The notes under the pieces: model-generated
Database searches by the model: none
Seen by the model: only the letters and a program-made list of their open reading frames with translations
Told to the model about the DNA's origin: nothing
Assembly (NCBI GenBank): GCA_039795775.1
Contig: JBDKLC010000006.1
Span: 3,772 to 67,771 of the forward strand
Source: Candidatus Parcubacteria bacterium
GTDB taxonomy: Bacteria > Patescibacteriota > Minisyncoccia > Phycocordibacterales > CAIZLB01
Length of the DNA: 64,000 bases
Direction: 5' to 3'
Made by a program: the position numbers and the translations under genes
Shown: piece by piece, positions 8,901-62,731 of the stretch
How positions within the stretch are numbered: the first letter of the stretch is position 1
Layout of the letters: each line of letters starts with the position of its first letter

Positions 8901-11900
8901 ACCACCATTTGAAACAGGAGCAGTGAATGAAATTGTCGCTTCACCATTTCCTGAGACAGCACTTACGCCAGTTGGTGCACCTGGAGTAGTTACAGGCATA
9001 ACAGAATTTGATGCAATTGATGGAGAACTTGTTCCGACTGCATTTGTTGCTGTCACAGTAAAGTTATATGTTGTGCCGTTTGTTAGACCTGTTACAACCA
9101 CTGGTGATGCTCCGCTATGCACTACAAATCCTCCTGTGTTTGAAGATACTGTGTAATAAAGTACGGATGAGTATCCATCACTTGCTCCTGGTGTGAATGT
9201 TACTGTAGCTTCTCCATTCCCAGCTGTTGCAACACCAATAGTAGGTGCATCTGGAACAGTGGCTGGTGAAATTGAATTACTTGCAACTGATGCTGAGCTT
9301 GTACCCACAGCATTCGTTGCTGTCACTGTGAATGTATATGCCTGACCGTTTGTAAGACCAGTCACGATGAGTGGTGATGAAGTACCGGATGTTGTAAGTC
9401 CACCTGTATTTGAAGTAACTGTGTAGTACAAGATACTTGATCCGCCATTTGAAACAGGAGCAGTGAATGAAATTGTTGCTTGGCCATTTCCTCGAACAGC
9501 AGTGATGCTTGTTGGTGCATCAGGAACTGTCGCAGGAGTTACAGAATTTGAAGCTGTTGATGCAGTACTTGTTCCAACACCATTTGTTGCTGTCACTGTA
9601 AATGTGTATGCCTGACCATTTGTAAGACCTGTGATTGTACGTGGTGAACCATTACCTGAAGCTGTAAATCCTCCAGTGTTTGAACTTACTGTGTAATACG
9701 TAATCGCTGAACCTCCGTTTGAAACCGGTGGTGTAAATGTGATTGTGGCCTGACCATTTCCTGAAACAGCTGTGGCCCCAGTTGGAGCATCAGGAACAGT
9801 AGCTGGTGTCACAGAATTTGAAACTGAAGATGCAGTGCTTGTTCCTGCACTATTTGTCGCTGTTACAGTAAATGTATATACCTGACCGTTAGTGAGACCT
9901 GTCACAACAATCGGAGATGAACCTCCTGTTGCTGTAAAGCCTCCAGTGTTTGATGTCACTGTGTAATATGAAATTGATGCTCCTCCATTATCAACTGGTG
10001 GTGTAAATGTAATTGTCGCCTGGCCATTTCCTGCTACAGCGGTTACTCCTGTTGGTGCATTTGGCACTGTCGCTGGTGTTACAGAATTTGTTGTGGCAGA
10101 TGCAGTACTTGTTCCAGCCGCATTAGTTGCTTTCACTGTAAATGTATATGTCTGACCGTTTGTGAGACCTGTCACAACAATCGGTGATGATCCGCCTGTT
10201 GCTGTAAATCCTCCAGTGTTTGATGTCACTGTGTAGTACAAGATACTTGATCCACCGTTTGATACTGGTGGTGTAAATGTGATTGTGGCCTGACCATTTC
10301 CACCAGTTGCTGTTCCAATTGTTGGTGCATCAGGGATAGTCGCTGGAGTGACAGCATTACTTGTTGCAGAAGAAATACTTGTTCCGTTTGCATTTGTTGC
10401 TGTGACTGTGAATGTATATGTTGTGCCGTTTGTTAATCCTGTGATTGTAATTGGTGATCCTCCACTTGTTGCAGTAAAGCCACCAGGACTTGATGTAACT
10501 GTGTAAGATAAAATTTGTCCCCCTCCAGTGTTTGCTGGTGGAGTGAATGTGATTGTTGCTTGGCCATTTCCTGCTACAGCAACAATATTTGTTGGAGCAT
10601 CTGGTGCAACTTGATAATTAAAATATGGATATGTGACTGCCTCATCAATGTTCCAAATTGGAAGAGTTGTGAAATCCCAATTCGTAAATGTCGCCTGAGC
10701 TTCCATCTGTGTCGTTGTCTTTCCAGAAGTGTTTGTAGGAGTTGTCGCATTTCCTGCTCCATCTGTTTTTCCAGAAGTTGTAGTATCCCAATAACTTGAT
10801 GCCCATGTTCCACTTACTGGGTTACCTACAATTCCTCCTGCATATTGAAGTAACCCAGATGAACCTGTTGCACCTGTACTTCCATTACTTCCTCCTGTTC
10901 CACCAGTTCCTGCACTACCTCCGGCACCTCCGACTGCTCCAGAAGTTTTTGTTGCTGTCGGAACACCAGCTGAGTATGCATTAGTAACAAGAGAAGTTGC
11001 ATGACTTCCCAAAAGCCCTCCGACAAATGCACTAGCACCTGCACCTCCGATTGTTCCGTTTCCTCCGTTACCATTTGCTCCAGCAATTCCTCCTCCAGCT
11101 GCTCCGCCGTTTCCACCAGCGCCACCGGCCCCTCCAAATCCAGCAGACCCTGCTGTTGCAGTAACGTTACCAAGAGCATATGCGTTTGTAATTGTTCCAG
11201 TGTTATCTCCAACAAGTCCTCCTCCTGTCACAGCACCACCAGCGCCTCCAGTACCTCCAGATAAACCTGGTTGACCAGCACCACCGTTACCTGAACCACC
11301 AGATCCGCCCACACCTCCACTGCCTCCTTTTCCTCCAGTTCCTCCAGCAGCACCATTTCCTCCTGTCATTGTTACTGTTGTTGATGCATAGCTGTTACTA
11401 AAAGATCCAGTAGAAATGTTAGAACCAATAAGTCCTCCGGCAATACTTGCTCCACCAGTTCCTCCACCTGATCCTCCAGCGGCAGCTCCTCCGGCTCCTC
11501 CGGCAAGAGTTCCACCATTTCCTCCAGTTCCAGATGTACCTCGTACCCCTGCCGCTCCTCCGTTGCCTCCAACTGTTGTAACGGTGCCAGCTGTCCAAGA
11601 ATTTGATACAACTCCAGCCGTAAAGTTATAACCGATAAGACCTCCAGCATGTAATGCACCACCGTTTCCTGCATCTGCAGTTACACCTTGGTTACCACCT
11701 GCACCTCCAGCACCTGTTGCTCCACCAGTTCCTCCGTTACCTCCATTTCCTCCGTTTCCGCCCGCGCCTCCAGTAGCACCAGTAACTGAAACAGCACCAA
11801 CTGAGTAAACCGTTGAAATTGTACCGAGGTTATACCCTGTAAATCCACCACCGTATTTAACACCGCCAGCAGCACCAGTAGCACTTGCACCGGCATTAGC

Positions 11901-14900
11901 TCCAGCGCCTCCATTTCCTGCAAAAACACCGTTACCACCATTTCCTCCGTTACCAGCGATTCCACCGTTTCCTCCTGCTCCGCCAGAAAGTGTCAAACTT
12001 CCTGTTGAGTATGAATCTTTAACAATTCTTGTTGTTTCGTTTCTACCAATAAATCCTCCACCATACCCAATACCACCAGCACCTCCAGATGTTGCAGCTC
12101 CACCAAGACCACCGTTTGCTCCAGCGCCTCCTGATCCGACAGCACCGTTTGCACCGTTACCTCCTGTGCCTCCAGTACCTCCAGTTCCGGCAGTTCCAAC
12201 TACATTTGAAGTTGAATACGAGTTGAGCTGAACTGTTCCGTCATTTCTACCAATAAGTCCTCCAACATATAAAGTACCAGCAGCTCCTGCAGCACCAGCT
12301 GAACCACCCGCACCTCCAGTCGAAGCGATTCCTGCGGCCCCTCCATTTCCACCTGTTCCTCCTTGTCCACCGTTACCACTTGTTCCTGTTACAGTTGTAC
12401 CAACAGCATAACTTGTAGTAATCGTGTTTAAAGCGTTCACGTTGTACCCAATAAGACCACCAGCATAACTATCACCGCCAGCTCCGGCTGCACCACCAGT
12501 AGCTCCTGGCCCACCAATACCAGCACTCAAAGATGCATCAGCACCATTTCCACCTGTTCCTCCTTGTCCACCATTTCTTGCAAGTGATGTAACACTTCCT
12601 GTTGCATACGAATTCAAAATAACTCCGGTTGCAGCATTAATTCCAACAAGTCCTCCGGCATACGATGCTCCTCCGGCTCCAGTTGTTCCAACGGTTCCTC
12701 CCGCAGCACCTGTTGTTACTGTTCCACTCGTACTTGCTCCTCCGGCTCCACCAGTTCCTGCAGTACCAACATTTCCACTTGTTGATGTGACATTTCCTGT
12801 TGCATAAGAAACACTTTCAATAATTCCTCCACCAGCAAGAGCGGCTGTTCCATTTGTTCCAATAAGTCCACCGGCATATGCAGCACCTCCAGCTCCAGAT
12901 GCACCTCCGGCTCCACCAACACCTCCAATAGCTGCTGTTCCACCAGCGCCACCAATCACACCATTAGCACCATTTCCACTAGCACCTCCCACAGCATTTA
13001 CTGCACGTGTTGAATAACTTGTTGTAATTTGTAAGTTGTTACTTGCTGTTGCATTGGCTTGTCCAACAAGTCCTCCAGCATATGCTGCTCCTCCAGCAGC
13101 ACTCGCACCAGATGCACCTGTTGCTCCTCCCGCAGCGGCGACTGCTCCTCCTGCCGTTGATGTTCCTGCGCTTCCGCCATTTCCTGATGCACCACCAGTT
13201 GCAGTAACACTTCCTGTTGTTGAGTAATTATTCACATAATGAATAAATCCAGTTGTAACGCTTGTTAGTCCGACGAGTCCGCCAGCGTCAGCTTCACCTC
13301 CAATACCTGACGCTCCTCCAGCCCCGCCAGCACCACCGATTGTTCCTCCTGTTCCACCGTTTCCACCTAAGTTTCCAGTTGCACCAACACCACCTCGAGC
13401 ACTCACTAAACCTGTTGAATACGAACCCGTAATATCACTTTGTGCAGGCGTTGTCGTGATTCGGTGAATACCAATAAGTCCACCGGCATATGCAGCACCT
13501 CCAGCAGGTGGAGTAAGTACAGCTCCACCTCCCGCTCCTCCAGCAGCACCAGATGCTGACGCTCCACCATTTCCACCAGTTCCTTGAGTTCCTCCATTAC
13601 CTCCAGTTGAACTTGCGAATCCTGTTGCATAAACAGATATGTAATCAATTGAACCAGTTGTTAAGTTGCTGAATCCAACAAGTCCACCGGCATCAGCCTC
13701 ACCACCCACTCCGGCAACACCACCCAAACCTCCAGTTGCACCTGCGTGTGTAGAACTTCCCGTAGAACCATTTCCTCCAACACCTCCAGCACCACCGTTT
13801 CCACCAGTTCCACTTGTAACAGAAATATTTCCAGTAGCATAAGAATTGTTAATCTGCATCACTTGCGTTGTTCCTGTGATACGACCAACCAAGCCGCCAC
13901 CATATGTAGCAGCACCCGCGCCTCCAACCCCTCCAACCCCAGCAACAGCAGCGGTTCCACTTGACTGACCTGAACCTGATGTACCTCCTGTTCCTCCCGC
14001 GCCTCCATTTCCTCCGTTACCACCTGTTACAGAAATATGTACGGTTGAATATGAACCTCCTTGAATTGATCCTATTGTTGAAAGATAATCACCGACAAGC
14101 CCACCGAACGCACGGATACCTCCAGCACCTCCTGCGCCGCCAACAGCACCCACACCTCCGTTGTTTGCTCCAACACCGGCTCCACCGTTTCCTCCAGTAC
14201 CTCCGTTGCCTCCGTTTTGTTCAGTTCCTGAAATAGTTAACGTGTCAGCATATGAAGATGTGATAACTCCAGAACTAAATCCAATAAGTCCTCCAGCAAA
14301 AGCTCCAGATGATGCGCCTCCGACACCCGCAGTACCAAGACCTCCAGCTCCACCAACGCCGCCAGCTGCAAGTCCTGAACCTCCGTTTCCTGCATTTCCA
14401 CCATTTCCTGCTGATCCACCTGTAACTGTGATATTACCTTTTCCTGAGCCAGCATCGAAACTAGCGTAGGAAGAAATAACATCAGCTGTTGAATATCCAG
14501 CGAGACCTCCAGCATAAATAATTCCAGACGCACCTCCTGCGCCAGGTACACTTCCTGCAGCTCCAGTGTTTGCACCTGCAGAAATACCAGCAGATCCATT
14601 TACACCAGAACCACCTGTCACTATCAATGAAGTTTTTGAAAATGACGCAGCTTCAATAACACCGGTTGTATATCCAACAAGTCCTCCTGCATATACTGCA
14701 CCTCCGGCGCCTCCAGCTGCTCCCGCACCTCCAACACCATAAACTGCACTACCAGTTCCAATTCCACCTGTTCCTCCAAGAGCCGCAGCTCCACCATTTC
14801 CACCTGTTGCAGTTACCGTTCCTGTTTGTGCGTAACTTGTAGTAATAGTTCCCAAAATATTTTGACCAACAAGACCTCCGGCTTGCACTGATGCAGCAAG

Positions 14901-17900
14901 TGTAATAGCAGCTGCACCTCCAGCTCCTCCTGCACCTCCCGCACCTCCAATATGGTTTGTACCTAATGATCCATCACCACCTGCTCCACCAACGCCTCCA
15001 GCTCCTCCGTTACCACCGACAGCAGTCACGCTGGTTGTGGCGTACGAATTTGTAATACTTGCAGAAACAGCTGTAACACCATTTCTACCAACGAGTCCTC
15101 CAACAGAAACTGCACCACCAACACCTCCAGCTGCACCTGTACCTCCAGCTGCAGCAGTACCGTTTGTAATAGATCCCGAAGCACCTCCGGCTCCACCGGC
15201 ACCACCATTTCCTCCATTTCCACTTGTTGCAGTAACAGAACCACCAACATGATATGAGTTCAAAATTGCAGATGTGTTGTCACCAACCAATCCTCCGGTG
15301 AAGTTAACACCTCCAGCTGCGCCAATAGTTCCAGAGGTTCCAGCTGTACCAGCTACAGAAGAACCCCCAGCTCCTCCTGCACCTCCGGCACCTGAGTTTC
15401 CTCCGTTACCTGATGTTCCTTGTATAGTTCCTGATGAAAATGAATTAACAATATCACCTGAAGTTACTAAGCCAACCAACCCTCCAGTATATGACGCACC
15501 TCCAAGACCAGCTCCACCTCCAGCTCCTCCGGCACCTCCAACTTGTCCAGCTCCACCAGTTGCACCTGCTCCACCATTTCCGGCATTTCCTCCGTTACCT
15601 GCAACAACCGTAACATTTCCAGATGCTGTAGATGATGCAATTGCAACAAGTGTGTTTGTAAAACCAACAAGTCCTCCACCATATGCAAATCCTCCAGCAC
15701 CTCCAATACCACCGTTACCACCAGCTCCTCCGACAACAGCACTTATTGCAGCAGCACCCGCGCCTCCAACTTGTCCTGTTCCACCGTTACCACCATTAAC
15801 TGTGATATTCCCTGTAGCATATGAATTTACAATATTTTGTGCAGCACCAGAGTTGTAACCTTCAAGTCCTCCTGCATAAACAGCAAGACCGACAGCACCA
15901 CCTCCACCTCCAGCTCCTCCAGTACTTCCAGCTGCACCGTTTACACCTGCAACTCCTGCGCCTCCGGCTCCTCCATTTCCTGATGTTACTGTGACGTTGT
16001 TTGTTGAATAGACTGTATCGATAAGTACAGATACAAGTGAACTAAATCCAATTGCGCCGCCAGCATACACTGGACCAACAACACCGCCAGTTCCTCCTGC
16101 ACCTCCTACTCCATTTCTTCCACTTCCAGACCCACCAACTCCTCCCGCACCTCCGGTTGCTCCGACACCACCATTTCCTCCAACTGTAACAGTGATAGTG
16201 CCCCCAGTTGCACTAGATTTTTGAATATTACCGTTTCCTTGCCCAACAAGTCCTCCAATATATACTGCGCCTCCAGAAGATCCGGCGCCTCCCGCACCTC
16301 CAATTCCTCCCGCGTGACCTCCTGTGCCGAGAGATCCGTTGCCTCCAACTCCACCAACTCCACCATTTCCTCCATTTCTTCCAACAGCAGTTAGACTTCC
16401 AATAACTACTGAATCAACAATTACTCCTGAGTTATCACCCGCAAGTCCTCCTATATATGCAGCGCCACCGATACCACCAGCACCTCCGGCTCCGCCAGTT
16501 GCACCAGCACCAGCAGCAATATTTCCTGATGCTCCCGCATTTCCTCCAGTACCTCCAGTTCCAGGAACTCCACCCAACGCAGTAATAGATGTAATTGTAT
16601 AAGTCACATCATGAATTACTCCGGCATTAAATCCGAGTATTCCACCACTTGCAGCAAGTCCACCGTTTCCTCCAGCACCAGCTGCACCTCCAACACCTCC
16701 AATTGCGCCAGCTGTACTTCCGCCATTTCCTCCGTTACCTCCTGTAGCTCCGTTTCCACCAGCTCCTCCAAGAGAAGCTACTGTTCCTGTTGTATTTGGA
16801 ATTGAGATTGTTGTACCGAGTACAGTGTCGTTACCAATAACGCCTCCCGCATACGCTGCGCCTCCTGTAAAACCTGATCCACCTCCAACACCCGCAACTC
16901 CAACGACACCAGCGCCACTTGCTCCGCCATTTCCTCCGACACCACCGTTTCCTCCGGCGCCTCCATTTGCATACACACTTCCACTTGCATATGAATCAGA
17001 TGCAACTGATCCCGAGTTAAAACCAACGAGACCTCCTGCAGCTGCGACACCTCCAGAAACTCCGGCACTCCCTGCTACACCTGTACCTCCACTGAACGCA
17101 CCAGTCGAAGAACCTCCTGAACTACCTGCAAGACCATTTGCACCAGCACCTCCAGTCGATGTTGCGTTACCACTCGCGTATGACGCTCCTTGAATAATTC
17201 CGTTTGTAGAGTTGAATCCAATCAAACCACCTGCATATGCGACACCACCCACGTTTGTTCCTGCTGCACCAGCTGCACCTCCTGCTCCTCCAGCAGAAAA
17301 GCTACTTGCTCCACCGTTTCCTCCAGAACCGTTTGAACTTCCAGCGCCACCAGTTGCAATAGCATTTCCTGTTGCGTAAGAATTATTTATTACACCTGTA
17401 TTGATTCCCACAGCGCCTCCGGCATAACTCGCTGCACCAACAACACCAATACCACCAGTACCTCCAACTGCGCCTGTTCCTGCCGCACCACCATTTCCTC
17501 CAACACCTGAAGTTCCAGAAGTAGAACTCGCAAGTATAAATGAGTGAGAATTATTTATTGTTCCCGCAGAGTTAAAAGCAATTATTCCTCCGGCGTATCC
17601 AATGGCGCCAGCTCCACCTGCTCCACCAGTTCCACCGATTGCACCAAGCGCTCCTGTTCCAGCAGTTCCTCCAGCGCCTCCATTTACTCCGGCTCCTCCG
17701 TTACCTCCAATAACAGTTGCAGCTCCAGATTCAATATATGTATTTATAATAATTGCTGTGTTTAATCCTGCGATACCTCCGGCATATCCAACTGCACCCG
17801 CACCACCAGCACCTCCAGCGGCTCCTGCAGCACCAGTACTTGAAGATCCTCCTGTAGCATTACTTCCACCAAGCCCTGCTGCTCCTCCATTTGCTCCAGC

Positions 17901-20900
17901 AGAAGCTGTAGCAGAAATAATTCCACTTGCGTAAGAATTTTGAATTGTGTTTGTGTTGTTACCGACAATTCCTGCAGCATATGCAATTGCTCCTGCACCT
18001 CCGGCTCCACCGGCACCACCCACGGCTCCTGCACCAACAAATGTTCCTACTGATGCTCCACCGTTTCCACCAATTCCTCCAACCTGAGCAATTCCGGCAA
18101 CTGAAGTTATATTTCCAGTTGAATATGAAGAAGCTTGAATAACACCAGCACTCTGTCCAACAACACCACCTGCTGTTGAAACGGCGCCAGCACCGCCCGC
18201 ACCGGCTGTTGCACCAACACCTCCCGCAAAGTTTGTTCCACCAACACCACCATTTCCTCCGTTACCAGCAGTACCTCCATTACCAGCATCCACAATAATA
18301 TTGCCTGTATTGTAACTTGCAGAAACAGTTCCCAACACGATGTTACCTGCAACACCTCCACCAAAAGCAGCACCGCCAGTTCCTCCAGCAGCTCCTGCTC
18401 CACCTGCACCTCCAGTGTTTGAAGTTCCAGCACCACCATTTCCTCCGTTACCACCAGCTCCACCGTTTCCTCCATAAGCTGTGATAGTACCTGATGAATA
18501 TGAATTTGAAATTTCACCGTTGTTCAAAAAACCAACAACACCTCCAACATATGAAATACCTCCAGTTGATCCAACACTTCCAGCAACTCCTGCAACACCC
18601 GTAGTAAATGAATACCCATCACCACCACTTGCACCTGCACCTCCGGCACCAGATGTACCTGTTACGTCTCCTGTTGAATATGAATTTAAAATAGATGTTC
18701 CTGTATTGTGTCCAACCACACCACCGGCATAAACGATTCCTCCTCCGACAGCAGCTCCTGCTGCACCTCGTGTACCTCCAGTCCAAGCACCTCCAGCACC
18801 TCCCACTCCCGCAGCACCGCCCGCTCCTGCTGTTCCAGTGATTGCACCTGTTGTATGAGAACTATTAATTATAGAAAGAGTGCTGTTACCTGCAATTCCA
18901 CCAATATATAAAATACCTGCAGCCCCTCCGGTACCTCCAGCAAGTCCAGCGAGTCCTGTCTGTGCAGCGACTCCAGTTCCACCTGTTCCACCAGCACCGG
19001 CTTGGCCAGTCACAGCATTTGTAGACGAAGTATTTTGAATTACTCCCGTATTACTTCCAACAAGGCCTCCAGCATATGTAGCAACTACAGCAGCAGATCC
19101 TCCAGTTCCAGATGCACCTCCGGCACCAGATGTACCAGCTGAACCTTTTGCTCCTCCTGCTCCACCTATTCCACCAGTTCCTCCAGCACCACCAGTCACA
19201 GTAACAAGTCCAGTAGTTGAACTTGCAGAAGTAATTATTCCAGAATTTAATCCAACAAGTCCACCCGCATATGCTGCTCCTCCAGCTCCACCGTTTCCTG
19301 CGGCACCTCCAGCACCTCCAGTTCCAGAAGTTGTTAATGCAGCACTACCTCCTGCACCTCCGGCTGTTCCGTTTTTTCCAGCAGAACCTGTAGCAGTAAC
19401 AGCACCCGTTGCATAAACAGTAGATGATGCACCAGTAATAACTCCTGAAATACCATTTTGTCCAACCAATCCTCCGGCGTATGCAATTGCTCCAGCTCCA
19501 CCAGCACCTCCGGCTGCAGTTCCACTTGATGCTGCAACAGCTACTGAAGCTGCTGCTGATGCACCACTTGCGCTACCGGCTGAACCATTACCCGGTGTTC
19601 CACCAAATGCTTGCACAATACCTGTTGCATAACTTCCGTTCAGGATTGTGCCAGAGTTGTTTCCAGCAAGACCTCCGGCATACGCTGTTCCAGCTGCTCC
19701 ACCAGCAGCTCCTAATGCACCAAGCCCACCAATGTTTGCACCTCCGACACCAGTTCCAGCGTTACCTCCGTTACCAGCTGTTCCTGCATTTCCTCCCGCT
19801 CCACCTCTTGCTGTTACATTTCCAGTACTAAAAGAAGTTGAAACTGTTCCCGCTTGAATCCATCCGACAATTCCACCGACATATGCAATGTTACCCGCAC
19901 CGGCGCCTCCGGCTGCACCTCCGGCTCCACCGATACCAGTTCCAACTCCTGCAACAGAACCGTTTCCTCCATTTCCTGCGTTACCACTTGCACCTCCAGC
20001 TCCACCTGTTCCAACAACTGTTGCAGAACTTGTTGCAGTTGTAATACTTCCTTGTTGAGAATATCCGACAACACCTCCAACATATGCAAGACCTCCGGTT
20101 GCAGCAGCGTTGTTTGCCGCCGCTGCACCAGTTCCTCCTGTAGTTGCACCGGTTGTTGTGTTACCTCCGTTTCCACTATTTCCTCCGGCACCTCCTGATC
20201 CTCCTACACCGTTAATAGTTCCGGCAACACTTACATTTGTAATTGTTCCTGTGTTGTATCCAACCAAACCTCCCAAATACAAAGTTGCTCCAGCAGTACC
20301 GGCTCCACCAGCTGTACCACTTGTCGGTGTTGCACCATCTGATCCGTTTGTACCGGTTGTACCAACTGTGCCTGCAGTACTTGTGGCAGAAATAGAAACA
20401 CCAGAGAGAGTTACATCTTTAATAAGGTTTGTAGAATATCCAAAAAGACCGACATAACTCGACGTTGTTGTACTGATATACAAATTATTAATCGCAAAGT
20501 TGTTACCATCAAAAATACCTGCAAATGGAGTTGCGACGTTACCGATTGGATCAAACCCAACACCAGAACTCCAACCACTTGTAGTAGCGGCATCAATATT
20601 GTTATTGAGTTTAAATGAGCTCGACAAGTTTGTCTTCATTCCCTGCAAACCATACACATCAAAAACAATAAATGGATCTGAACTGATTCCAATTCCTGTA
20701 TATCGTCGGAATGTTCCAGCTGTGATAGAAAAACTTCCTGATACTGACAATGTGTTTGTTCCAGGATCAGTGGCAGTAAAAGTCGCCGCAGAAACTTGTG
20801 CATAGTTTCCAGATTGTCCTCCGGAATTTGTAATTGTAAGGTTAGCGTTTTGGAGAATAGTGCCTGTAAAACCATTAATAGTGAGAGAGCCTATAGTTCT

Positions 20901-22175
20901 CGCACTATCTATAGTAGCTGTCACAGCCGCGCCTCCTGATGTAGCATCGAAGAAAACGTTTGTTGTGGCATCAGGCAAGTTACCAGCTCCTGGCGCACCA
21001 CCCGATGTTGCTGCCCAGTGGTTTGCAGCATCAGACCAGTTTCCAGAGCCACCAACCCAATACGCATTTGCTGGTGGGTCAGTAATAAAATCGATATCTA
21101 CATTTCCAATAACTTTTAAATCAAATACGTCTGTCGATGTAGCAAGTCCAGAAAGATTGATTCGATACTTACCGTCCTGGTTAATAGTTGCAAATGTTCC
21201 GACGAGTGTTCCATCGAGTGTATACACTTCTATAGTTGCTGGTAGATTTGCATCCGTTGGTCGTGCATACAATGTTATGTCTCTTGTACTATCAAGTGGT
21301 TGTTCAAAAGTAACACGTACATACTGACCATCTAAAATACTTACATAATTTCCATCGCGCACTCCCACACCTGAGAAAATATCTTCAATACTATTTTTAT
21401 CTGCATCAAGTCGCAATGCATTCGAAATTAAAATAATCTGGAAAGTTTGTGTTGAAAGGTGTGGAACAATCCATGCGAGGTGATCAATATATCCATCACC
21501 ATCTTCATCAGTTGCGACAAACTGAATGTCTTCATTTCCATTGTTCTGCCATTTAATTTTTATCTGACTTTCTTGACCCACTTTAAAAATTTCTGGTATT
21601 TCTGTTTTTACAGGAACATCAGTCAAGTGTGCAATTAAGTCTTGTTCTGGTGTCGACGCAACAACCACAACTTTTCCGGCTGCATTATTTTCTTCTGTGA
21701 TGATTACTGATGATGTTGCAAAACTTGTTGTAGTGGTTGCACTTGTTGAAGTTGTTGAAGTTGACTCAAATGAACCGCCTGCAGTTACCCCATTAGAAAT
21801 AGGTGCAGATGAAGTAGACATTAAAAGTGCACTTTCTGTACTTGTTGAAATATCTTCTGCTGGAGTTGATGTAGAACTTGAAGAACTGTTTTCAGTAGGT
21901 GTCGATGTTGCTGTAGATGTAGAGATATCTCCAGTGTTTTCAGTTGTTGTAACTGGAGTGTCTGACACATCTGAAGTGTCAGAAGTGTCTTCTGCTGGAG
22001 TTGTCGGTTCAGGTACAGAAACAGTGTCAGTCGCTGGTGAAGAAACTTCAGGCACAGTTGCTTCTACGACAGGAGTTGGATCTTCTTCAGCAAATGCGGT
22101 AGAGAAAAAACCGCAAAATATAATTGCTGAGATTAAAAAAACAAATAACTTTTTGCGACGTGTCTGTGCGTGCAT
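5916..22175 (-). CDS. Giant secreted surface fibre/adhesin-like protein (5,419 aa): signal peptide, Ser/Thr/acidic stalk, beta-helix-like N-domain, ~50 GLUG-like Gly-rich repeats, 15 FN3 repeats, unknown beta module, C-terminal dockerin
   Basis: A single uninterrupted ORF. The N-terminus MHAQTRRKKLFVFLISAIIFCGFFSTAFA is a signal peptide. Repeats follow the pattern Y[AV]GG[LIV][VIA]G.N.G.I.NSY[AS]TG.V, spaced by GGAGG/GNGG runs. Fifteen ~90-aa repeats follow the form PDAPT..TAV.GNGQATI.FT.PVSNGGS.I..YTVTSNTGGFTATGG.SPI.ITGL.NG..YTFTV.A.N..GTS. The last ~65 aa read DLNGDCKVNSVDFSIMLAFW...DINRDGKVDSVDFSILLYQW, a duplicated Ca-binding dockerin signature. Confidence 0.85.
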   Translation of the reverse strand: MHAQTRRKKLFVFLISAIIFCGFFSTAFAEEDPTPVVEATVPEVSSPATDTVSVPEPTTPAEDTSDTSDVSDTPVTTTENTGDISTSTATSTPTENSSSSSTSTPAEDISTSTESALLMSTSSAPISNGVTAGGSFESTSTTSTSATTTTSFATSSVIITEENNAAGKVVVVASTPEQDLIAHLTDVPVKTEIPEIFKVGQESQIKIKWQNNGNEDIQFVATDEDGDGYIDHLAWIVPHLSTQTFQIILISNALRLDADKNSIEDIFSGVGVRDGNYVSILDGQYVRVTFEQPLDSTRDITLYARPTDANLPATIEVYTLDGTLVGTFATINQDGKYRINLSGLATSTDVFDLKVIGNVDIDFITDPPANAYWVGGSGNWSDAANHWAATSGGAPGAGNLPDATTNVFFDATSGGAAVTATIDSARTIGSLTINGFTGTILQNANLTITNSGGQSGNYAQVSAATFTATDPGTNTLSVSGSFSITAGTFRRYTGIGISSDPFIVFDVYGLQGMKTNLSSSFKLNNNIDAATTSGWSSGVGFDPIGNVATPFAGIFDGNNFAINNLYISTTTSSYVGLFGYSTNLIKDVTLSGVSISATSTAGTVGTTGTNGSDGATPTSGTAGGAGTAGATLYLGGLVGYNTGTITNVSVAGTINGVGGSGGAGGNSGNGGNTTTGATTGGTGAAAANNAAATGGLAYVGGVVGYSQQGSITTATSSATVVGTGGAGGASGNAGNGGNGSVAGVGTGIGGAGGAAGGAGAGNIAYVGGIVGWIQAGTVSTSFSTGNVTARGGAGGNAGTAGNGGNAGTGVGGANIGGLGALGAAGGAAGTAYAGGLAGNNSGTILNGSYATGIVQAFGGTPGNGSAGSASGASAAASVAVAASSGTAAGGAGGAGAIAYAGGLVGQNGISGVITGASSTVYATGAVTATGSAGKNGTAGGAGGSAALTTSGTGGAGGAAGNGGAGGAAYAGGLVGLNSGIITSASSTTGLVTVTGGAGGTGGIGGAGGAKGSAGTSGAGGASGTGGSAAVVATYAGGLVGSNTGVIQNTSSTNAVTGQAGAGGTGGTGVAAQTGLAGLAGGTGGAAGILYIGGIAGNSTLSIINSSHTTGAITGTAGAGGAAGVGGAGGAWTGGTRGAAGAAVGGGIVYAGGVVGHNTGTSILNSYSTGDVTGTSGAGGAGASGGDGYSFTTGVAGVAGSVGSTGGISYVGGVVGFLNNGEISNSYSSGTITAYGGNGGAGGNGGNGGAGTSNTGGAGGAGAAGGTGGAAFGGGVAGNIVLGTVSASYNTGNIIVDAGNGGTAGNGGNGGVGGTNFAGGVGATAGAGGAGAVSTAGGVVGQSAGVIQASSYSTGNITSVAGIAQVGGIGGNGGASVGTFVGAGAVGGAGGAGGAGAIAYAAGIVGNNTNTIQNSYASGIISATASAGANGGAAGLGGSNATGGSSSTGAAGAAGGAGGAGAVGYAGGIAGLNTAIIINTYIESGAATVIGGNGGAGVNGGAGGTAGTGALGAIGGTGGAGGAGAIGYAGGIIAFNSAGTINNSHSFILASSTSGTSGVGGNGGAAGTGAVGGTGGIGVVGAASYAGGAVGINTGVINNSYATGNAIATGGAGSSNGSGGNGGASSFSAGGAGGAAGAAGTNVGGVAYAGGLIGFNSTNGIIQGASYASGNATSTGGAGANGLAGSSGGSSTGAFSGGTGVAGSAGVSGGVAAAGGLVGFNSGSVASDSYASGSVYANGGAGGNGGVGGNGGASGAGVVGVAGVGGGSGFTGGAAYAGGVIGNDTVLGTTISIPNTTGTVASLGGAGGNGATGGNGGNGGSTAGAIGGVGGAAGAGGNGGLAASGGILGFNAGVIHDVTYTITSITALGGVPGTGGTGGNAGASGNIAAGAGATGGAGGAGGIGGAAYIGGLAGDNSGVIVDSVVIGSLTAVGRNGGNGGVGGVGGNGSLGTGGHAGGIGGAGGAGSSGGAVYIGGLVGQGNGNIQKSSATGGTITVTVGGNGGVGATGGAGGVGGSGSGRNGVGGAGGTGGVVGPVYAGGAIGFSSLVSVLIDTVYSTNNVTVTSGNGGAGGAGVAGVNGAAGSTGGAGGGGGAVGLAVYAGGLEGYNSGAAQNIVNSYATGNITVNGGNGGTGQVGGAGAAAISAVVGGAGGNGGIGGAGGFAYGGGLVGFTNTLVAIASSTASGNVTVVAGNGGNAGNGGAGATGGAGQVGGAGGAGGGAGLGGASYTGGLVGLVTSGDIVNSFSSGTIQGTSGNGGNSGAGGAGGAGGSSVAGTAGTSGTIGAAGGVNFTGGLVGDNTSAILNSYHVGGSVTATSGNGGNGGAGGAGGASGSITNGTAAAGGTGAAGGVGGAVSVGGLVGRNGVTAVSASITNSYATTSVTAVGGNGGAGGVGGAGGDGSLGTNHIGGAGGAGGAGGAAAITLAASVQAGGLVGQNILGTITTSYAQTGTVTATGGNGGAAALGGTGGIGTGSAVYGVGGAGAAGGAGGAVYAGGLVGYTTGVIEAASFSKTSLIVTGGSGVNGSAGISAGANTGAAGSVPGAGGASGIIYAGGLAGYSTADVISSYASFDAGSGKGNITVTGGSAGNGGNAGNGGSGLAAGGVGGAGGLGTAGVGGASSGAFAGGLIGFSSGVITSSYADTLTISGTEQNGGNGGTGGNGGAGVGANNGGVGAVGGAGGAGGIRAFGGLVGDYLSTIGSIQGGSYSTVHISVTGGNGGNGGAGGTGGTSGSGQSSGTAAVAGVGGVGGAGAATYGGGLVGRITGTTQVMQINNSYATGNISVTSGTGGNGGAGGVGGNGSTGSSTHAGATGGLGGVAGVGGEADAGGLVGFSNLTTGSIDYISVYATGFASSTGGNGGTQGTGGNGGASASGAAGGAGGGAVLTPPAGGAAYAGGLIGIHRITTTPAQSDITGSYSTGLVSARGGVGATGNLGGNGGTGGTIGGAGGAGGASGIGGEADAGGLVGLTSVTTGFIHYVNNYSTTGSVTATGGASGNGGSAGTSTAGGAVAAAGGATGASGASAAGGAAYAGGLVGQANATASNNLQITTSYSTRAVNAVGGASGNGANGVIGGAGGTAAIGGVGGAGGASGAGGAAYAGGLIGTNGTAALAGGGIIESVSYATGNVTSTSGNVGTAGTGGAGGASTSGTVTTGAAGGTVGTTGAGGASYAGGLVGINAATGVILNSYATGSVTSLARNGGQGGTGGNGADASLSAGIGGPGATGGAAGAGGDSYAGGLIGYNVNALNTITTSYAVGTTVTGTSGNGGQGGTGGNGGAAGIASTGGAGGSAGAAGAAGTLYVGGLIGRNDGTVQLNSYSTSNVVGTAGTGGTGGTGGNGANGAVGSGGAGANGGLGGAATSGGAGGIGYGGGFIGRNETTRIVKDSYSTGSLTLSGGAGGNGGIAGNGGNGGNGVFAGNGGAGANAGASATGAAGGVKYGGGFTGYNLGTISTVYSVGAVSVTGATGGAGGNGGNGGNGGTGGATGAGGAGGNQGVTADAGNGGALHAGGLIGYNFTAGVVSNSWTAGTVTTVGGNGGAAGVRGTSGTGGNGGTLAGGAGGAAAGGSGGGTGGASIAGGLIGSNISTGSFSNSYASTTVTMTGGNGAAGGTGGKGGSGGVGGSGGSGNGGAGQPGLSGGTGGAGGAVTGGGLVGDNTGTITNAYALGNVTATAGSAGFGGAGGAGGNGGAAGGGIAGANGNGGNGTIGGAGASAFVGGLLGSHATSLVTNAYSAGVPTATKTSGAVGGAGGSAGTGGTGGSNGSTGATGSSGLLQYAGGIVGNPVSGTWASSYWDTTTSGKTDGAGNATTPTNTSGKTTTQMEAQATFTNWDFTTLPIWNIDEAVTYPYFNYQVAPDAPTNIVAVAGNGQATITFTPPANTGGGQILSYTVTSSPGGFTATSGGSPITITGLTNGTTYTFTVTATNANGTSISSATSNAVTPATIPDAPTIGTATGGNGQATITFTPPVSNGGSSILYYTVTSNTGGFTATGGSSPIVVTGLTNGQTYTFTVKATNAAGTSTASATTNSVTPATVPNAPTGVTAVAGNGQATITFTPPVDNGGASISYYTVTSNTGGFTATGGSSPIVVTGLTNGQVYTFTVTATNSAGTSTASSVSNSVTPATVPDAPTGATAVSGNGQATITFTPPVSNGGSAITYYTVSSNTGGFTASGNGSPRTITGLTNGQAYTFTVTATNGVGTSTASTASNSVTPATVPDAPTSITAVRGNGQATISFTAPVSNGGSSILYYTVTSNTGGLTTSGTSSPLIVTGLTNGQAYTFTVTATNAVGTSSASVASNSISPATVPDAPTIGVATAGNGEATVTFTPGASDGYSSVLYYTVSSNTGGFVVHSGASPVVVTGLTNGTTYNFTVTATNAVGTSSPSIASNSVMPVTTPGAPTGVSAVSGNGEATISFTAPVSNGGSAITYYTVTSNTGGFTATGGSSPITITGLTNGTTYTFTVTASNAYGTSTQSATSNSVTPATVAGAPTGVSAVRGNGEATISFTAPVSNGGAAITSYTVTSNIGGFTATGGSSPIVVTGLSNGTTYTFTVTANNAVGTSASSTASNSVTPATVPDAPTSVTAVRGNGEATITFNAPVSNGGSAITSYTVTSNVGGFTATGGSSPITITGLTNGTTYTFTVTATNSVGTSTPSATSNSVTPATVPDAPTSVTAVSGNGQATISFTAPVSNGGSAITYYTVTSNTGGFTATGGNSPITITGLSNGTTYTFTVTASNAVGTSTVSGTSNSVTPATVPDAPTSVSAVSGNGQATITFTPPVSNGGSTILYYTVNSNIGNFSVSGGNSPITITGLSNGTAYIFSVTATNAVGTSSASVASNSVTPATVPDAPTSVTAVSGNGQATISFTAPVSNGGSAITLYTISSNTGGFIATTTTSSAIVSGLSNGTTYTFTVTATNALGTSTASVASNSVTPATAPDAPTSVTAVSGNGQATITFTPPVSNGGSAITSYTVTSNTGGFTASGGSSPITVTGLTNGQAYTFTVTATNALGTSTASVVSNSVTPATVPDAPTNVAATIGDQSAGVTWSVPASNGSAIQYYTVTSNTGGFTATSSTNSIVMNGLTNGVTYTFTVTATNALGTSVSSGSSGGVTPATIPGAPTNLAATVQDSSIDLSWTAPISNGGSALTDYVIEYKLSSGGTWAVFNDGVGTTPATTVTSLSNDNSYDFRISAKNVIGTSTASSIVSATPGAPAQVLIQSFSSLVVPTISTNVRITNEGSIAYEYQYTWCVTDSSSNECGGGDDIFSSTAAKLIQPGANFDTTLNSTVPVAGNYYFHFKVLFGSDSSSANQSFTAVTTTPVTPPTGGTGGSGGGGGGGSSPAPVSIPIPTGMKCAITGADLNGDCKVNSVDFSIMLAFWKTSAPFKNQGVDINRDGKVDSVDFSILLYQWGKTPIAFKKQ
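5919..6130 (-). other. Dockerin module (two calcium-binding repeats) at the C-terminus of the giant protein
   Basis: DxNxDGxVNSxDxxxL appears twice, separated by about 22 aa, with a Gly-rich linker upstream. Confidence 0.6.
6560..10640 (-). repeat. Tandem coding repeat array: 15 fibronectin-III-like units, 270-bp period, high inter-unit nucleotide identity
   Basis: The string ggtgcatcagg(a/c)acagt(g/c)gctggtgt(t/c)ac recurs every 270 bp (about 6826, 7096, 7366 ... 10593). The protein carries 15 in-frame FN3-like units. Confidence 0.8.
10810..20460 (-). repeat. Gly-rich GLUG-like repeat array (~50 units of ~40-60 aa) encoded by GGN-codon-rich DNA
   Basis: About 50 occurrences of the YAGGLVG.N.G.I core are separated by GGAGGAGG/GNGGNGG tracts. 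The plus strand is correspondingly CCN-rich, which generates spurious Pro/Ala ORFs. Confidence 0.75.
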
Positions 22176-24726: not shown

Positions 24727-24890
24727 GGGGAGACTAGGGCTCGGTCACAGGTCTCGCAGACATGCTGCTCGCCTGCGACCCAGCCTCCTTGCCGCGCTTC
24801 GCCGATGTTATTAAGTCCAAAGTATACATCGTGCCGGCTCACTGCGCGACTTCGTCCGGCTTTCTCGCCGTCAGTCTTTCAGAGCAAAAA
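24727..24890 (-). repeat. tRNA-associated ~200-bp element, copy 1. It ends in a 15-nt duplicate of the tRNA-Gln 3' end (GAGCCCTAGTCTCCC) preceded by CCTGTGACC and a conserved ~55-nt core.
   Basis: The core ggtcacaggtctcgcAgacatgcTgctcgcctgcgacc(ca)gcctcctt is near-identical to 39843..39896. The flanking duplicate matches tRNA-Gln positions ~58-73. Confidence 0.5.
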
Positions 24891-39842: not shown

Positions 39843-39996
39843 GGTCACAGGTCTCGCCGACATGCGGCTCGCCTGCGACCCCGCCTCCTTCGTAGCAATT
39901 CGCTTCGCTCATATAGCTACTTCAGTCCGGCTTTCAAGTCCCTGTATCAACTCGTAGAAAATTAAAAGACCGAGCAGAAGCTCGATCTTTTAATTT
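39843..39996 (-). repeat. tRNA-associated ~200-bp element, copy 2. It ends in a 17-nt duplicate of the tRNA-Asp 3' end (AAGTCCCATTCACCGCG) preceded by CCTGTGACC and the conserved core.
   Basis: Core ggtcacaggtctcgcCgacatgcGgctcgcctgcgaccccgcctcctt. Two of the three differences from copy 1 are compensatory within a GC(A/C)G...C(T/G)GC stem. It shares tccggctttc and a post-tRNA hairpin with copy 1. Confidence 0.5.
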
Positions 39997-40073
39997 TGGC
40001 GCGGTGAATGGGACTTGAACCCACGACCTCTCCCGTGACAGGGGAGCGCTCTAACCAGCTGAGCTACCACCGC
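39997..40073 (-). tRNA. tRNA-Asp (anticodon GTC)
   Basis: Minus-strand GCGGTGGTAGCTCAGCTGGTTAGAGCGCTCCCCTGTCACGGGAGAGGTCGTGGGTTCAAGTCCCATTCACCGCGCCA. Anticodon loop CUGUCAC. CCA encoded. Confidence 0.8.
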
Positions 40074-40182
40074 ATGCGTTTATATCTCTATATACCAGAC
40101 AATACCCAAAAGGTATAGACTGTTTCGATATTATACATAAAATTCGGTATTTTCAAAGTATTCAAAGTAATAAAATGAAAAG

Positions 40183-40218
40183 CGCCGGCCCACGTCGAAG
40201 ACGTGTGGCCGGCGCCTG
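40183..40218 (-). terminator. GC-rich rho-independent terminator after the 40281..41468 gene
   Basis: The stem gcgccggccc.acg / cgtg.tggccggcgc is followed by ttttcatttt on the minus strand. Confidence 0.5.
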
Positions 40219-42431: not shown

Positions 42432-43571
42432 TTGAAACGCATTGCAACGGAACCTCGCCAAGAGTGGCGACAAAAAGTAGAAGAAGCAGGTCTCATTTTT
42501 CACACGACGCCGGAAGGTGTCTACTGGAATGAGGCAGCTCACTACTCGTTCAGTATGGGTGAGGTCCTAATGCTCGAACAAGTAACCAACGACCTTCACG
42601 CCATGTGCCTTCAAGCGGCACAACACGTGATCGACAAAAACCTCTTTGCCCAACTGGGCATTCCTCCGAATGCGGCGGAACTCATCAAAGAAACATGGGA
42701 AGAGGAACCGCCTGCCATTTATGGGCGATTCGATCTCGCATACGACGGCATTCATCCGCCGAAAATGCTGGAATACAACGCTGACACACCGACAAGCCTT
42801 TTAGAGGCAGCGGTGGTGCAGTGGTTCTGGCTTCAAGAGCTTGATCCTGGAAGTTTGGCACAATTCAACTCAATTCATGAGCGACTCGTCGCAAAATGGA
42901 AAGAACTAAAAAGCTACATCAAGGGTTCAACACTCTATTTTGGCCACGCGGGAACGCACGAGGATATTATGACCATTGCCTACATCGCTAACACGGCGAT
43001 GGAAGCTGGTATTCATACGCAAGAAATTGCGATGAAAGATATTGGCTGGGAACGCCAACGTCATCACTTTGTCGACCTCAGTGGTCGGCAGATTGGAAGT
43101 ATCTTCAAGCTCTACCCGTGGGAGTGGCTTGTCCATGAAGAATTCGCACCGCAGCTCTCTGAGTCGCGCAAGAAAACACAATGGATTGAGCCTGCATGGA
43201 AAATGTTGCTGTCCAACAAAGGGATTCTCCCGATCCTCTGGCAACTTTTTCCCAACCATCCGAATCTGCTTCCCTGCTACTTCGGCGACCCTCATGGAAT
43301 GAAAGACTACGTGCGCAAACCTCTTCTCTCACGAGAAGGTGCAAACGTGGAAATTTACTCTAGCGGGACCATCGTCGAATCGCAGGGTGGTGACTATGGC
43401 GAAGAAGGATATGTGTGCCAAGCGCGCGCAGTTCTTCCTAACTTCAATGGAAATTATCCAGTTATTGGAAGCTGGGTCATTGACGGCGAAGCGGCTGGCA
43501 TGGGAATTCGTGAAGCAGACACCCTGATCACTGGAAACCTGAGCCGTTTCGTGCCTCACCGTATCGACTAG
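42432..43571 (+). CDS. Glutathionylspermidine synthase-like (pre-ATP-grasp, YgiC/YjfC family) protein
   Basis: 379 aa. The blocks RQEWRQKVEEAGLIFHT, YWNEAAHYSF, GRFDLAYDG...EYNADTPTSLLEAAVVQW and ILPILWQLFPNHPNLL are characteristic of the GSP synthetase C-domain family. Confidence 0.65.
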   Translation: MKRIATEPRQEWRQKVEEAGLIFHTTPEGVYWNEAAHYSFSMGEVLMLEQVTNDLHAMCLQAAQHVIDKNLFAQLGIPPNAAELIKETWEEEPPAIYGRFDLAYDGIHPPKMLEYNADTPTSLLEAAVVQWFWLQELDPGSLAQFNSIHERLVAKWKELKSYIKGSTLYFGHAGTHEDIMTIAYIANTAMEAGIHTQEIAMKDIGWERQRHHFVDLSGRQIGSIFKLYPWEWLVHEEFAPQLSESRKKTQWIEPAWKMLLSNKGILPILWQLFPNHPNLLPCYFGDPHGMKDYVRKPLLSREGANVEIYSSGTIVESQGGDYGEEGYVCQARAVLPNFNGNYPVIGSWVIDGEAAGMGIREADTLITGNLSRFVPHRID

Positions 43572-43657: not shown

Positions 43658-43733
43658 TGGTGTCAGGGGTGGGGATCGAACCCACGACCCCAGGCTTATG
43701 AGTCCTGTGCTCTACCGACTGAGCTACCCTGAC
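43658..43733 (-). tRNA. tRNA-Met (anticodon CAT), elongator-type
   Basis: Minus-strand GTCAGGGTAGCTCAGTCGGTAGAGCACAGGACTCATAAGCCTGGGGTCGTGGGTTCGATCCCCACCCCTGACACCA. G1:C72. CCA encoded. Confidence 0.8.
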
Positions 43734-62375: not shown

Positions 62376-62468
<93 letters not shown>

Positions 62469-62641
62469 GTCTGTGCAAGGTTCGTTCACGAACCTGAACA
62501 GACATATAGGATTGTGGGGATTCGAAAGCCGGAACGAATTGCCAATGTCGCAACAGCGACTGGCACAAGTGAGGCGGGGTCGCACAAAATTTCTGTAAGA
62601 AATTTATGTGTGACCGAATCCTTTGTTACAATAAAATATAC

Positions 62642-62731
62642 GGAGGAATGGATGAGTGGTTTAAATCAACGGTTTACTAAACCGTCGAGCCTTAATTGGC
62701 TCCGTGAGTTCGAATCTCACTTCCTCCGCCA
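62642..62731 (+). tRNA. Type II (Ser-like, G73) tRNA with anticodon loop UUACUAA, i.e. anticodon ACU in standard numbering
   Basis: GGAGGAATGGATGAGTGGTTTAAATCAACGGTTTACTAAACCGTCGAGCCTTAATTGGCTCCGTGAGTTCGAATCTCACTTCCTCCGCCA. Every stem pairs: 3-bp D, 5-bp anticodon ACGGT/ACCGT, variable GAGCC/GGCTC, T GTGAG/CTCAC. CCA encoded. Confidence 0.6.

Follow-up and report, generated by a model that had tools for sequence, protein, structure and literature searches.

Behind many tRNA genes of candidate-phyla-radiation (CPR) bacteria (Patescibacteria) lies a short, gene-less element that carries a covarying fold on the tRNA-sense strand. Its junction with a duplicated tRNA 3' part falls at C56, the duplication is a DNA-level one, the 5' arm of each element matches its tRNA, the family is widely spread, and its units turn over among close strains. 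The family is apparently specific to CPR bacteria, fast-changing and undescribed. In the explanation that we favor, and to which we give roughly an even chance, it is a non-autonomous mobile element that targets the T-loop DNA of tRNA genes and is recognized as a folded single strand.

Three copies of the element in the window

The window – the whole 64,000-nucleotide stretch that was analyzed – belongs to a Candidatus Parcubacteria MAG and contains seven tRNA genes (identified by ARAGORN and Rfam). Three of the seven, for Gln, Asp and Ser(GCU), carry an element, in each case on the strand of the tRNA, and a search with covariance model R1 (described below) puts the number of copies at exactly three. 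Each element is roughly 100–150 bases in size, rich in hairpins and without genes, and is followed by a distal repeat of the last 7–19 bases of its tRNA. An earlier, sequence-only reading had counted two copies: those at tRNA-Asp and tRNA-Gln are real, but the one at tRNA-Ser(GCU), 62514-62627 (+), had been missed. The span given there for the Asp element (39843-40073) does contain it but stops short of its end, since the 19-nt repeat of the tRNA continues from 39843 to 39825. The parts of the Asp copy, and the two other copies, are as follows.

40073-39997 (-): tRNA-Asp(GUC), intact, CCA encoded (ARAGORN; Rfam tRNA, 67.3 bits)
40017-39999 (-): proximal copy of the direct repeat, within tRNA-Asp, C56 to C74 (repeat search)
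39996-39958 (-): terminator-like hairpin and T-run between tRNA-Asp and the element, AAATTAAAAGATCGAGC-TTCT-GCTCGGTCTTTTAATTTT (sequence reading; terminator scan in part)
39942-39933 (-): 5' arm ("anti-T" word) GGGACTTGAA, the 5' strand of closing helix P1 (sequence, minimum-energy fold)
39931-39881 (-): P2 (GCC/GGC) around internal loop GGA/GA and hairpin P3, then junction GG (fold, invariant columns of alignment A1, pair counts)
39880-39843 (-): hairpin P4 (repeat match to the Gln copy, fold, pair counts)
39843-39825 (-): distal direct repeat CAAGTCCCATTCACCGCGC of tRNA C56 to C74, 19 nt (repeat search)
39820-39793 (-): strong intrinsic terminator directly past the distal repeat (terminator scan)
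24884-24728 (-): Gln copy, behind tRNA-Gln(CUG) at 24997-24924 (covariance model, 48 bits)
62514-62627 (+): Ser copy, behind tRNA-Ser(GCU) at 62376-62467 (covariance model, 76 bits)

The anti-T word of the Asp copy is the reverse complement of the T-loop and T-stem of tRNA-Asp (TTCAAGTCCC), with an exact 8-nt complement at offset 0, and the columns of P1 covary. The core that follows this word consists of AGCCGGA, the P3 hairpin, GA-GGC-GG and P4, in that order. P3 contains tandem G.A and has the mini-hairpin GAGCGAAGCGA as its tip; the lower stem of P4 (GGUCGCA/UGUGACC) includes a G.U wobble and a bulged A, while its upper stem is variable. The first 8 nt of the distal repeat form the 3' strand of P1. 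In the Gln copy, GCCGGA (24860-24855) is followed by a long P3, by P4 (24780-24743) and by a 16-nt repeat of the tRNA, CGAGCCCTAGTCTCCC (24743-24728); P1 is here built with tandem G.A (GGCGAG/CGAGCC). Behind tRNA-Ser(GCU) there is a hairpin at 62468-62504, then the anti-T word GGGGATTCGAA (62516-62526), an AT-rich P4 and a repeat of just 7 nt (CGAATCC, 62615-62621), which is exactly the P1-paired part.

That the element at tRNA-Asp is a further copy of the one at tRNA-Gln, as had been observed earlier, is confirmed by a 31-nt segment of P4 (39850-39880), which matches 24750-24780 with two mismatches; the number of such matches expected by chance is 0. The three core differences previously described fall within a shared core of about 48 nt, ggtcacaggtctcgc[c/a]gacatgc[g/t]gctcgcctgcgaccc[c/a]gcctcctt. 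Two of them are indeed a compensatory pair in the upper stem of P4 (on the tRNA strand, GCCG/CGGC in Asp vs. GCAG/CUGC in Gln), and the third lies within the 2-nt junction between P2 and P4. The word TCCGGCTTTC, noted before as common to both copies, is present at 24855 and 39926 and occurs a third time at 62524, on the other strand (0.04 occurrences expected).

A second tRNA-Ser gene (62642-62731, +; 56 bits as a tRNA) stands 15 nt past the repeat of the Ser copy. ARAGORN assigns it the anticodon ACU, in the loop TTACTAA, and an unmodified-looking A34 is unusual in a Ser tRNA. Elsewhere in the window, a giant ORF (5916-22175, -) encodes 5419 aa with 25% Gly plus Ala, Thr and Ser; it contains 9-nt-periodic and 270-nt tandem repeats, a signal-like N-terminal segment and dockerin-like C-terminal repeats, and has a GC content of ~50% vs. 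~39% around it. The segment 40100-43600, between tRNA-Met (43658-43733) and tRNA-Asp, is likewise GC-rich (49% vs. ~39% elsewhere) and holds a glutathionylspermidine-synthase-family gene (42432-43571, +) and an unknown 395-aa ORF; its end is a GC-rich palindrome at ~40172-40215. It is possibly acquired DNA; a repeat search found no tRNA-Met repeat bounding this segment (40.1-43.6 kb).

A family behind many tRNA genes

Further copies were collected by pattern scans. A scan of species-representative genomes led to two Saccharibacteria MAGs, and a scan of metagenome contigs to 39 loci, about seven of which are false hits in GC-rich coding DNA. Twenty-eight distinct copies were aligned (alignment A1), the structure drawn by hand was tested, covariance model R1 was built, and all loci were searched with it; this search added copies that the pattern had missed, and the model-based alignment (A2) contains 38 distinct copies. 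The unit is ~95–190 nt in size and ORF-less throughout the family. Its hosts are Parcubacteria/Paceibacteria (including Zambryskibacteria) and Saccharibacteria contigs; locus L001, for example, is from Saccharibacteria, L022 from the Parcubacteria group, L040 from Zambryskibacteria and L041 from Paceibacterota. L021, L038, L040, L050 and L056 come from Hainich groundwater and related samples.

The family is found behind at least 13 tRNA specificities. Occupied tRNAs include those for Arg, Gly, Ser, Glu, Ala, Val, Asp, Gln, Leu, Trp, Tyr and Met, and one cut copy may follow tRNA-Phe or another tRNA. Most of the 39 model hits lie 8–90 nt behind a tRNA on the same strand; the remainder either stand second or third in a tandem array or are truncated at the end of a contig. 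In most family members a hairpin and T-run of the canonical terminator type stand between the tRNA and the element. Cores are more alike within one genome than between genomes, and the tRNA-matching arms differ (window Asp and Gln copies, L013, L021, L041).

Several variants depart from this plan. Members of one sub-family (L011, L020, L038, L040 and units 2 and 3 of L041) use the first bases of the tRNA trailer in place of the T-loop. At L001/L017, L009 and L028 the element joins directly onto a tRNA 5' part that breaks off in the T-loop or, in one case, in the anticodon loop, and an intact gene for the same tRNA adjoins. Units have accreted in tandem behind a single tRNA at L021, L041, L048 and L050. 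The tRNA-Ala(GGC) of L021 (1195-1265, -), which bears a three-unit array, has an unusual T-loop, TGCGACT, with G at position 55, and the 5' arms of the L021 elements match this variant loop. In CPR contigs (L033, L038 and others) many tRNA genes encode only N73-C or no CCA while others on the same contig encode the full CCA, and several tRNA terminator stems start within the acceptor 3' strand or the CCA.

A covarying fold on the tRNA-sense strand

The element has four parts: a 5' word, the invariant junction bases GCC-GGA...GA-GGC-GG, the hairpins P3 and P4, and the direct repeat of the tRNA. The 5' word pairs with the T-loop and T-stem of the tRNA, and the direct repeat pairs with the 5' word, thereby closing the fold (P1). 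P4 keeps its G.U wobble and bulged A; otherwise both P3 and P4 are variable. The Asp and Ser copies have the same minimum-energy architecture, in which P1 is followed by a GAAA joiner, P2 (GCC/GGC) bearing P3, GG, and P4 stacked on P1. Fold z-scores are -2.4 for Asp, -3.9 for Gln and -5.65 for Ser. The upper part of P4 is GC-rich in Asp and Gln and AT-rich in Ser, and yet the fold is identical, with the bulged A and GGUCGCA/UGUGACC retained.

Over the 38 distinct copies of A2, 84.4% of cells in the proposed helices are paired, compared to 31–41% when partners are slid by 1–3 columns. The covariation score is 0.46, compared to 0.145 in shuffles (0 of 500 reach 0.46), and in 24 of 27 pairs both partners have changed. 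Because the search pattern prescribed the lower stem of P4 and the GAGGC word, ascertainment accounts in part for the lack of variation there in copies derived from the pattern. Two observations go beyond ascertainment: the G.U wobble is present in 36 of the 38 copies though the pattern permitted C or T at this position, and copies that came from the model, outside the pattern's selection, conform to the others. The sequence-only reading had argued from its compensatory pair that the core is no neutral junk but works through its structure, as a structured RNA or as a recombination site, and had named an alignment of all genomic copies with R-scape or a covariance model among its checks. A single compensatory pair in two copies is weak by itself; the claim holds because of the massive covariation among the 38 family members.

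Mismatched cells and recurrent modules bear on the question of strand. Among mismatch cells of P4, 19 are G.A or A.G vs. two A.C or C.A, and the module CGAGC/GCGAG, in which G-C pairs flank a tandem G.A, is found repeatedly in P3 and P4 and also in P1. The motif GCGNAGC occurs 17 times in the sense orientation, in 13 of the 38 elements, and never in antisense (~2.5 expected; maximum of 9 in 300 shuffles). As DNA this motif forms a hyper-stable mini-hairpin, the RNA version being much less stable, and it is found naturally at single-stranded DNA priming sites (PMC13037366). Tips of this kind predict a fold that is far more stable as DNA than as RNA. Together, the retained G.U, the common tandem G.A and the sense-only GCGNAGC show that the conserved, covarying fold belongs to the tRNA-sense strand, either as RNA or as single-stranded DNA.

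Strong conservation of structure, including invariant junction bases, also speaks for the main rival to a mobile element: a non-coding RNA useful to the host, produced from the tRNA transcription unit as a trailer-derived small RNA or acting in cis as a switch. We consider such an RNA somewhat unlikely. As a switch, the 5' arm would have two alternative partners, the 3' part of the tRNA itself and the downstream repeat. A further version draws on the fuller copies (L008, L006, L015, L041, L012), whose 5' arm also complements the acceptor 3' strand and which have an extra hairpin, H, at the 65/66 junction: their closing helix would mimic the acceptor/T minihelix of a tRNA, which tRNA-processing enzymes could mature or bind. 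This idea fits the position of H in L008, L006, L015 and L041, since 65/66 is the point at which the body of a tRNA departs from its acceptor/T stack. A host RNA is also consistent with the constant placement of the element on the tRNA strand, 8–90 nt behind the tRNA, and with the setting of the Asp copy between a promoter-like site upstream of the tRNA and the strong terminator after the repeat. In most copies, however, a terminator intervenes between tRNA and element and leaves no room for a separate promoter, and for a trailer-derived small RNA these terminator-like hairpins argue for low read-through at most. Occupancy is moreover partial (three of the seven window tRNAs). With respect to the minihelix, the acceptor-like helix is fully Watson-Crick (the G3.U70 of Ala becomes A-U in L008) and can cover both the discriminator and the CCA; mimicry for aminoacylation is thus unlikely.

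The duplicated tRNA 3' end

The direct repeat begins precisely at C56, which is also the final C of GUGACC, in at least 20 copies. It is perfect over 7–30 nt, with unrelated sequence beyond. In eight copies it ends at nt 73–75; in others it extends into the trailer (30 nt in L003, 28 nt in L012, ~45 nt in L013, and also L021). Since trailer sequence is included, the duplication must have been made on DNA or on a precursor and not from the mature tRNA. As the element has the tRNA 3' part on either side of it, the tRNA gene stays intact: all upstream tRNAs were called as intact.

Elements that integrate into tRNA genes classically leave a restored tRNA and a direct repeat that reaches from the T-loop to the tRNA end. 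Copies could accordingly be attL/attR scars, CIME-like remnants of islands or prophages whose integrase used the tRNA T-loop, with hairpins that have no role of their own. To the restored tRNA can be added the tandem accretion seen at L021, L041, L048 and L050. We nevertheless regard scars as very improbable: between the repeats of ~40 copies there is no integrase and no gene of a phage or island, all inserts are of a similarly tiny size and contain the same conserved core, and covariation, a retained G.U and strand-specific motifs are not features that random deletion remnants can produce.

The ends of the repeat are equally relevant to a SINE-like retroelement, in which a read-through transcript with a tRNA-derived tail anneals to nicked T-loop DNA and serves as the template for target-primed synthesis by a reverse transcriptase acting in trans. 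Such a mechanism predicts that the 3' junction is fixed and that the 5' end and the length of the duplication vary, and the junction is indeed fixed at C56 while the 5' region and the length of the repeat (7 to ~45 nt) vary. An unencoded CCA follows the distal repeat in L018, L033 and L015/L022, where the tRNA gene is without CCA; in L033 the full CCA is encoded in none of four tRNA genes. The Asp and Gln copies of the window show the opposite CCA pattern, however, no reverse transcriptase was seen near any copy, and the longest repeats (L003, L012, L013) include genomic trailer that is absent from mature tRNA. A SINE-like origin appears quite improbable. A more general proposal, that mature, CCA-tailed tRNA is the source of every distal repeat, was dropped, as three copies fit it, two reverse it and young copies include trailer.

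The anti-T word could in principle be a copy of the tRNA's own 49–59 segment. This proposal, too, was dropped: it fits palindromic TTCGAA loops but fails for tRNA-Asp (TTCAAGT). In the window Gln copy and in L029 the arm is not a plain complement of the tRNA and pairs via tandem G.A, which looks like structural selection and not templated copying. In old copies (the window Ser copy with 7 nt, L010 and L019 with 11 nt each, and L008) only those bases of the repeat that pair with the 5' arm survive, and such survival shows selection on P1. The persistence of exactly the P1-paired bases where the repeat has decayed counts in favor of a host RNA, and it is a point against insertion as the explanation of the element, because it indicates long-term purifying selection on the fold, as for an RNA useful to the host. 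On the other side, the sequence-only reading had passed over three features, and it is these that speak for an insertion element: the third copy, the duplicated tRNA 3' end, and the pairing between this repeat and the 5' word.

Unit turnover at a tRNA-Met locus of close strains

The tRNA-Met locus of L022 was recovered from seven further contigs by means of the neighboring D-glycerate dehydrogenase gene (one cluster at 90% identity). L046 has one unit. L048 has two, with identical 47-nt 5' arms and repeats and different P3 and P4. L050 has three, two of them identical over 144 nt, which indicates recent unequal recombination between repeats. Hairpin tips are replaced wholesale between close strains. 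Differences in unit number, nested copies and swapped tips are unlike a housekeeping RNA and weigh against a host-useful one.

In L022, L053, L054 and L056 a complete element of ~93 nt, belonging to another sub-type (the L022 type, with the P4 stem CCUACAGG/CCUGUAGG), is nested in the 5' arm of a unit with a mutated P2. The nested junctions read GTGAGG|...|TCGAA, compared to GTGAGGGATCGAA in units without an interruption. The nested copy lies inside a T-loop-like word, its left edge corresponding to G53 and its right edge to T55/C56; the left edge matches that of copies fused to a tRNA 5' part, and the right edge matches that of copies trailed by a tRNA 3' part. Read from these junctions, the nested copy is the most direct evidence for insertion, with ends that are imperfectly resolved (2 nt of the target are missing). 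It is also the only clean insertion: unequal crossing-over alone can explain the change in copy number at tRNA-Met. Every strain compared has at least one unit, no empty tRNA-Met site was found among them, and a route to an empty site through ftsX orthologues was fruitless, synteny behind ftsX not being conserved; neither an empty site nor an excised form was recovered, which likewise counts against insertion. In the more distant genome of the window, an elongator-type tRNA-Met (43733-43658) is without an element.

Free-standing LAGLIDADG genes and one HNH gene are found directly beside tRNA genes that bear arrays of the element:

L041 5937-6758: LAGLIDADG/HNH gene
L048 4539-5207: LAGLIDADG/HNH gene
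L048 3374-3826: LAGLIDADG/HNH gene
L050 3522-4169: LAGLIDADG/HNH gene
L053 3603-4289: LAGLIDADG/HNH gene

The 3' ends of these genes overlap the start of the next tRNA, and the gene is absent in the single-unit strain L046. LAGLIDADG proteins of the two lineages are just 28% identical. Their placement could be a coincidence, or could reflect a homing endonuclease that acts on tRNA genes.

Searches for partner genes and known families

Pfam searches of the window neighbors returned no mobile-element protein, the products being FtsX, YecM, a methyltransferase, a glutathionylspermidine synthase and unknowns. An all-vs-all comparison of 623 ORFs from the loci gave no recurrent family beside elements, and among the loci examined no recombinase, transposase, reverse transcriptase or TnpB/IscB-like gene adjoins any copy. 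Genes for NYN-domain proteins (PIN-like RNase, LabA/DUF88) lie within ~1 kb of elements in two independent lineages and were not seen near most copies:

L004 1357-1953: NYN-domain gene
L034 1681-2118: NYN-domain gene
L041 7351-7890: NYN-domain gene

As candidates for a linked gene, NYN, LAGLIDADG and HNH were all rejected, since they occur near some copies (L004/L034, L041, L048, L050, L053) and not near most.

At the Rfam 15 gathering threshold the whole window gave tRNAs only, and relaxed searches, at E ≤ 10 for the Asp copy and E ≤ 5 for two arrays, gave no family that recurs over element copies. Hammerhead, hairpin ribozyme and standard k-turn were excluded by reading the junction (there is no CUGAUGA between helices, and the bulge is 1 nt, not 3 nt). 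A small peptide encoded in P4 was also considered, an SD-like GGAGG and an ATG giving ORFs of 14 aa (Asp) and 9 aa (Gln); it was rejected because the spacing is ~20 nt and no ORF of this kind exists in the Ser copy. With respect to a phage origin, a scan of viral contigs gave a single hit, a false one inside a coding region. Full-text literature searches found no description of such an element.

How the element would move

As a non-autonomous mobile element, the unit would insert at T-loop-like DNA (GG..TCGA), with one sub-family inserting at the 3' end of the tRNA. The conserved multi-helix junction, as a single strand of sense polarity, would be the cis-acting structure for a machinery encoded elsewhere, and after insertion the flanking repeats would drive tandem amplification through unequal recombination. 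A more specific proposal, which we put forward tentatively and hold to be doubtful, is that the family is a class of gene-less mobile elements with a reprogrammable "address" in their own folded strand, the 5' arm and the tRNA-derived tail together specifying the T-loop. The tRNA would then be left undamaged because its 3' part is rebuilt, and insertion would be served by a trans-acting enzyme or by the element's own catalysis. If this is true, CPR bacteria would possess an insertion system that is nucleic-acid-guided and targets tRNA genes. The re-matching of the 5' arm to a new tRNA stands outside all four readings – mobile element, host RNA, SINE-like retroelement and att scar – and is the most interesting point; it counts against the first of them.

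Comparison with known systems

The element resembles integrative elements of the tRNA T-loop (tyrosine-integrase att sites) in the duplication of the tRNA 3' part (from C56 in at least 20 copies, the tRNA being restored), in the intact tRNA and in its tandem units. No integrase or kilobase cargo is found between the repeats, however, the insert being 95–190 nt without an ORF, and the covarying single-strand fold, the tRNA-complementary arm and the at least 13 tRNA specificities are unlike such elements.

A second likeness is to integron attC and the attP(+) of CTX phage, with which it shares a strand-specific bulged hairpin that is read by structure (putatively so here), arrays at a fixed site, and a basal helix that spans the crossover point and whose 3' strand belongs to the neighboring or target DNA. 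Neither A1 nor A2 contains an R''/R' consensus (RYYYAAC/GTTRRRY), and there is no intI or attI and no cassette ORF. Unlike attC, the element has a basal helix that is specific to the tRNA, and its hairpin is interrupted by a conserved side arm (P2-P3).

PATEs and REP sequences derived from IS200/IS605 and moved by HUH Y1 enzymes are also short, ORF-less and strand-specific, lack terminal inverted repeats, have an imperfect hairpin (here with G.U and a bulged A) abutting the junction, and are fixed in orientation to a short target word. The present element differs in its long target duplication and in its target-complementary arm of 8–20 nt, and no TnpA, TnpB or RAYT was seen at the loci. MITE-like repeats (Correia, BOX, RUP, ERIC) are likewise small, non-coding, intergenic and strain-variable, with stable hairpins. 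In the element there are no shared terminal inverted repeats, P1 being the sole end-to-end complementarity and differing at every tRNA, and the duplication, of 7 to ~45 nt, is not of fixed length. Its location exclusively behind tRNA genes, its tRNA-derived closing helices and its conserved junction with covarying hairpins are further differences from MITE-like repeats.

Finally, bacterial tRNA group I introns and small ribozymes have in common with the element a multi-helix, RNA-like junction at tRNA genes and a guide-like arm that pairs with tRNA sequence beside the junction. The element is too small for a group I core, the functional tRNA is uninterrupted, and no intron or ribozyme family of Rfam gives a hit even at E ≤ 10.

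Significance

CPR bacteria have tiny genomes with little non-coding DNA, and a conserved, structured element of fast turnover fills the space behind many of their tRNA genes. On either reading, mobile element or host RNA, partial tRNA copies and duplicated 3' ends could pass for pseudogenes or att sites in annotation; the covariance model is ready for a census. If the element is a functional RNA, it would represent a new tRNA-linked class of RNA in a major and poorly known branch of bacteria. If it is mobile, its design is an unusual one, with no gene of its own, an arm matched to the tRNA, an exact junction at C56 and a rebuilt tRNA 3' end, and finding the enzyme could reveal a new form of structure- or guide-based DNA targeting.
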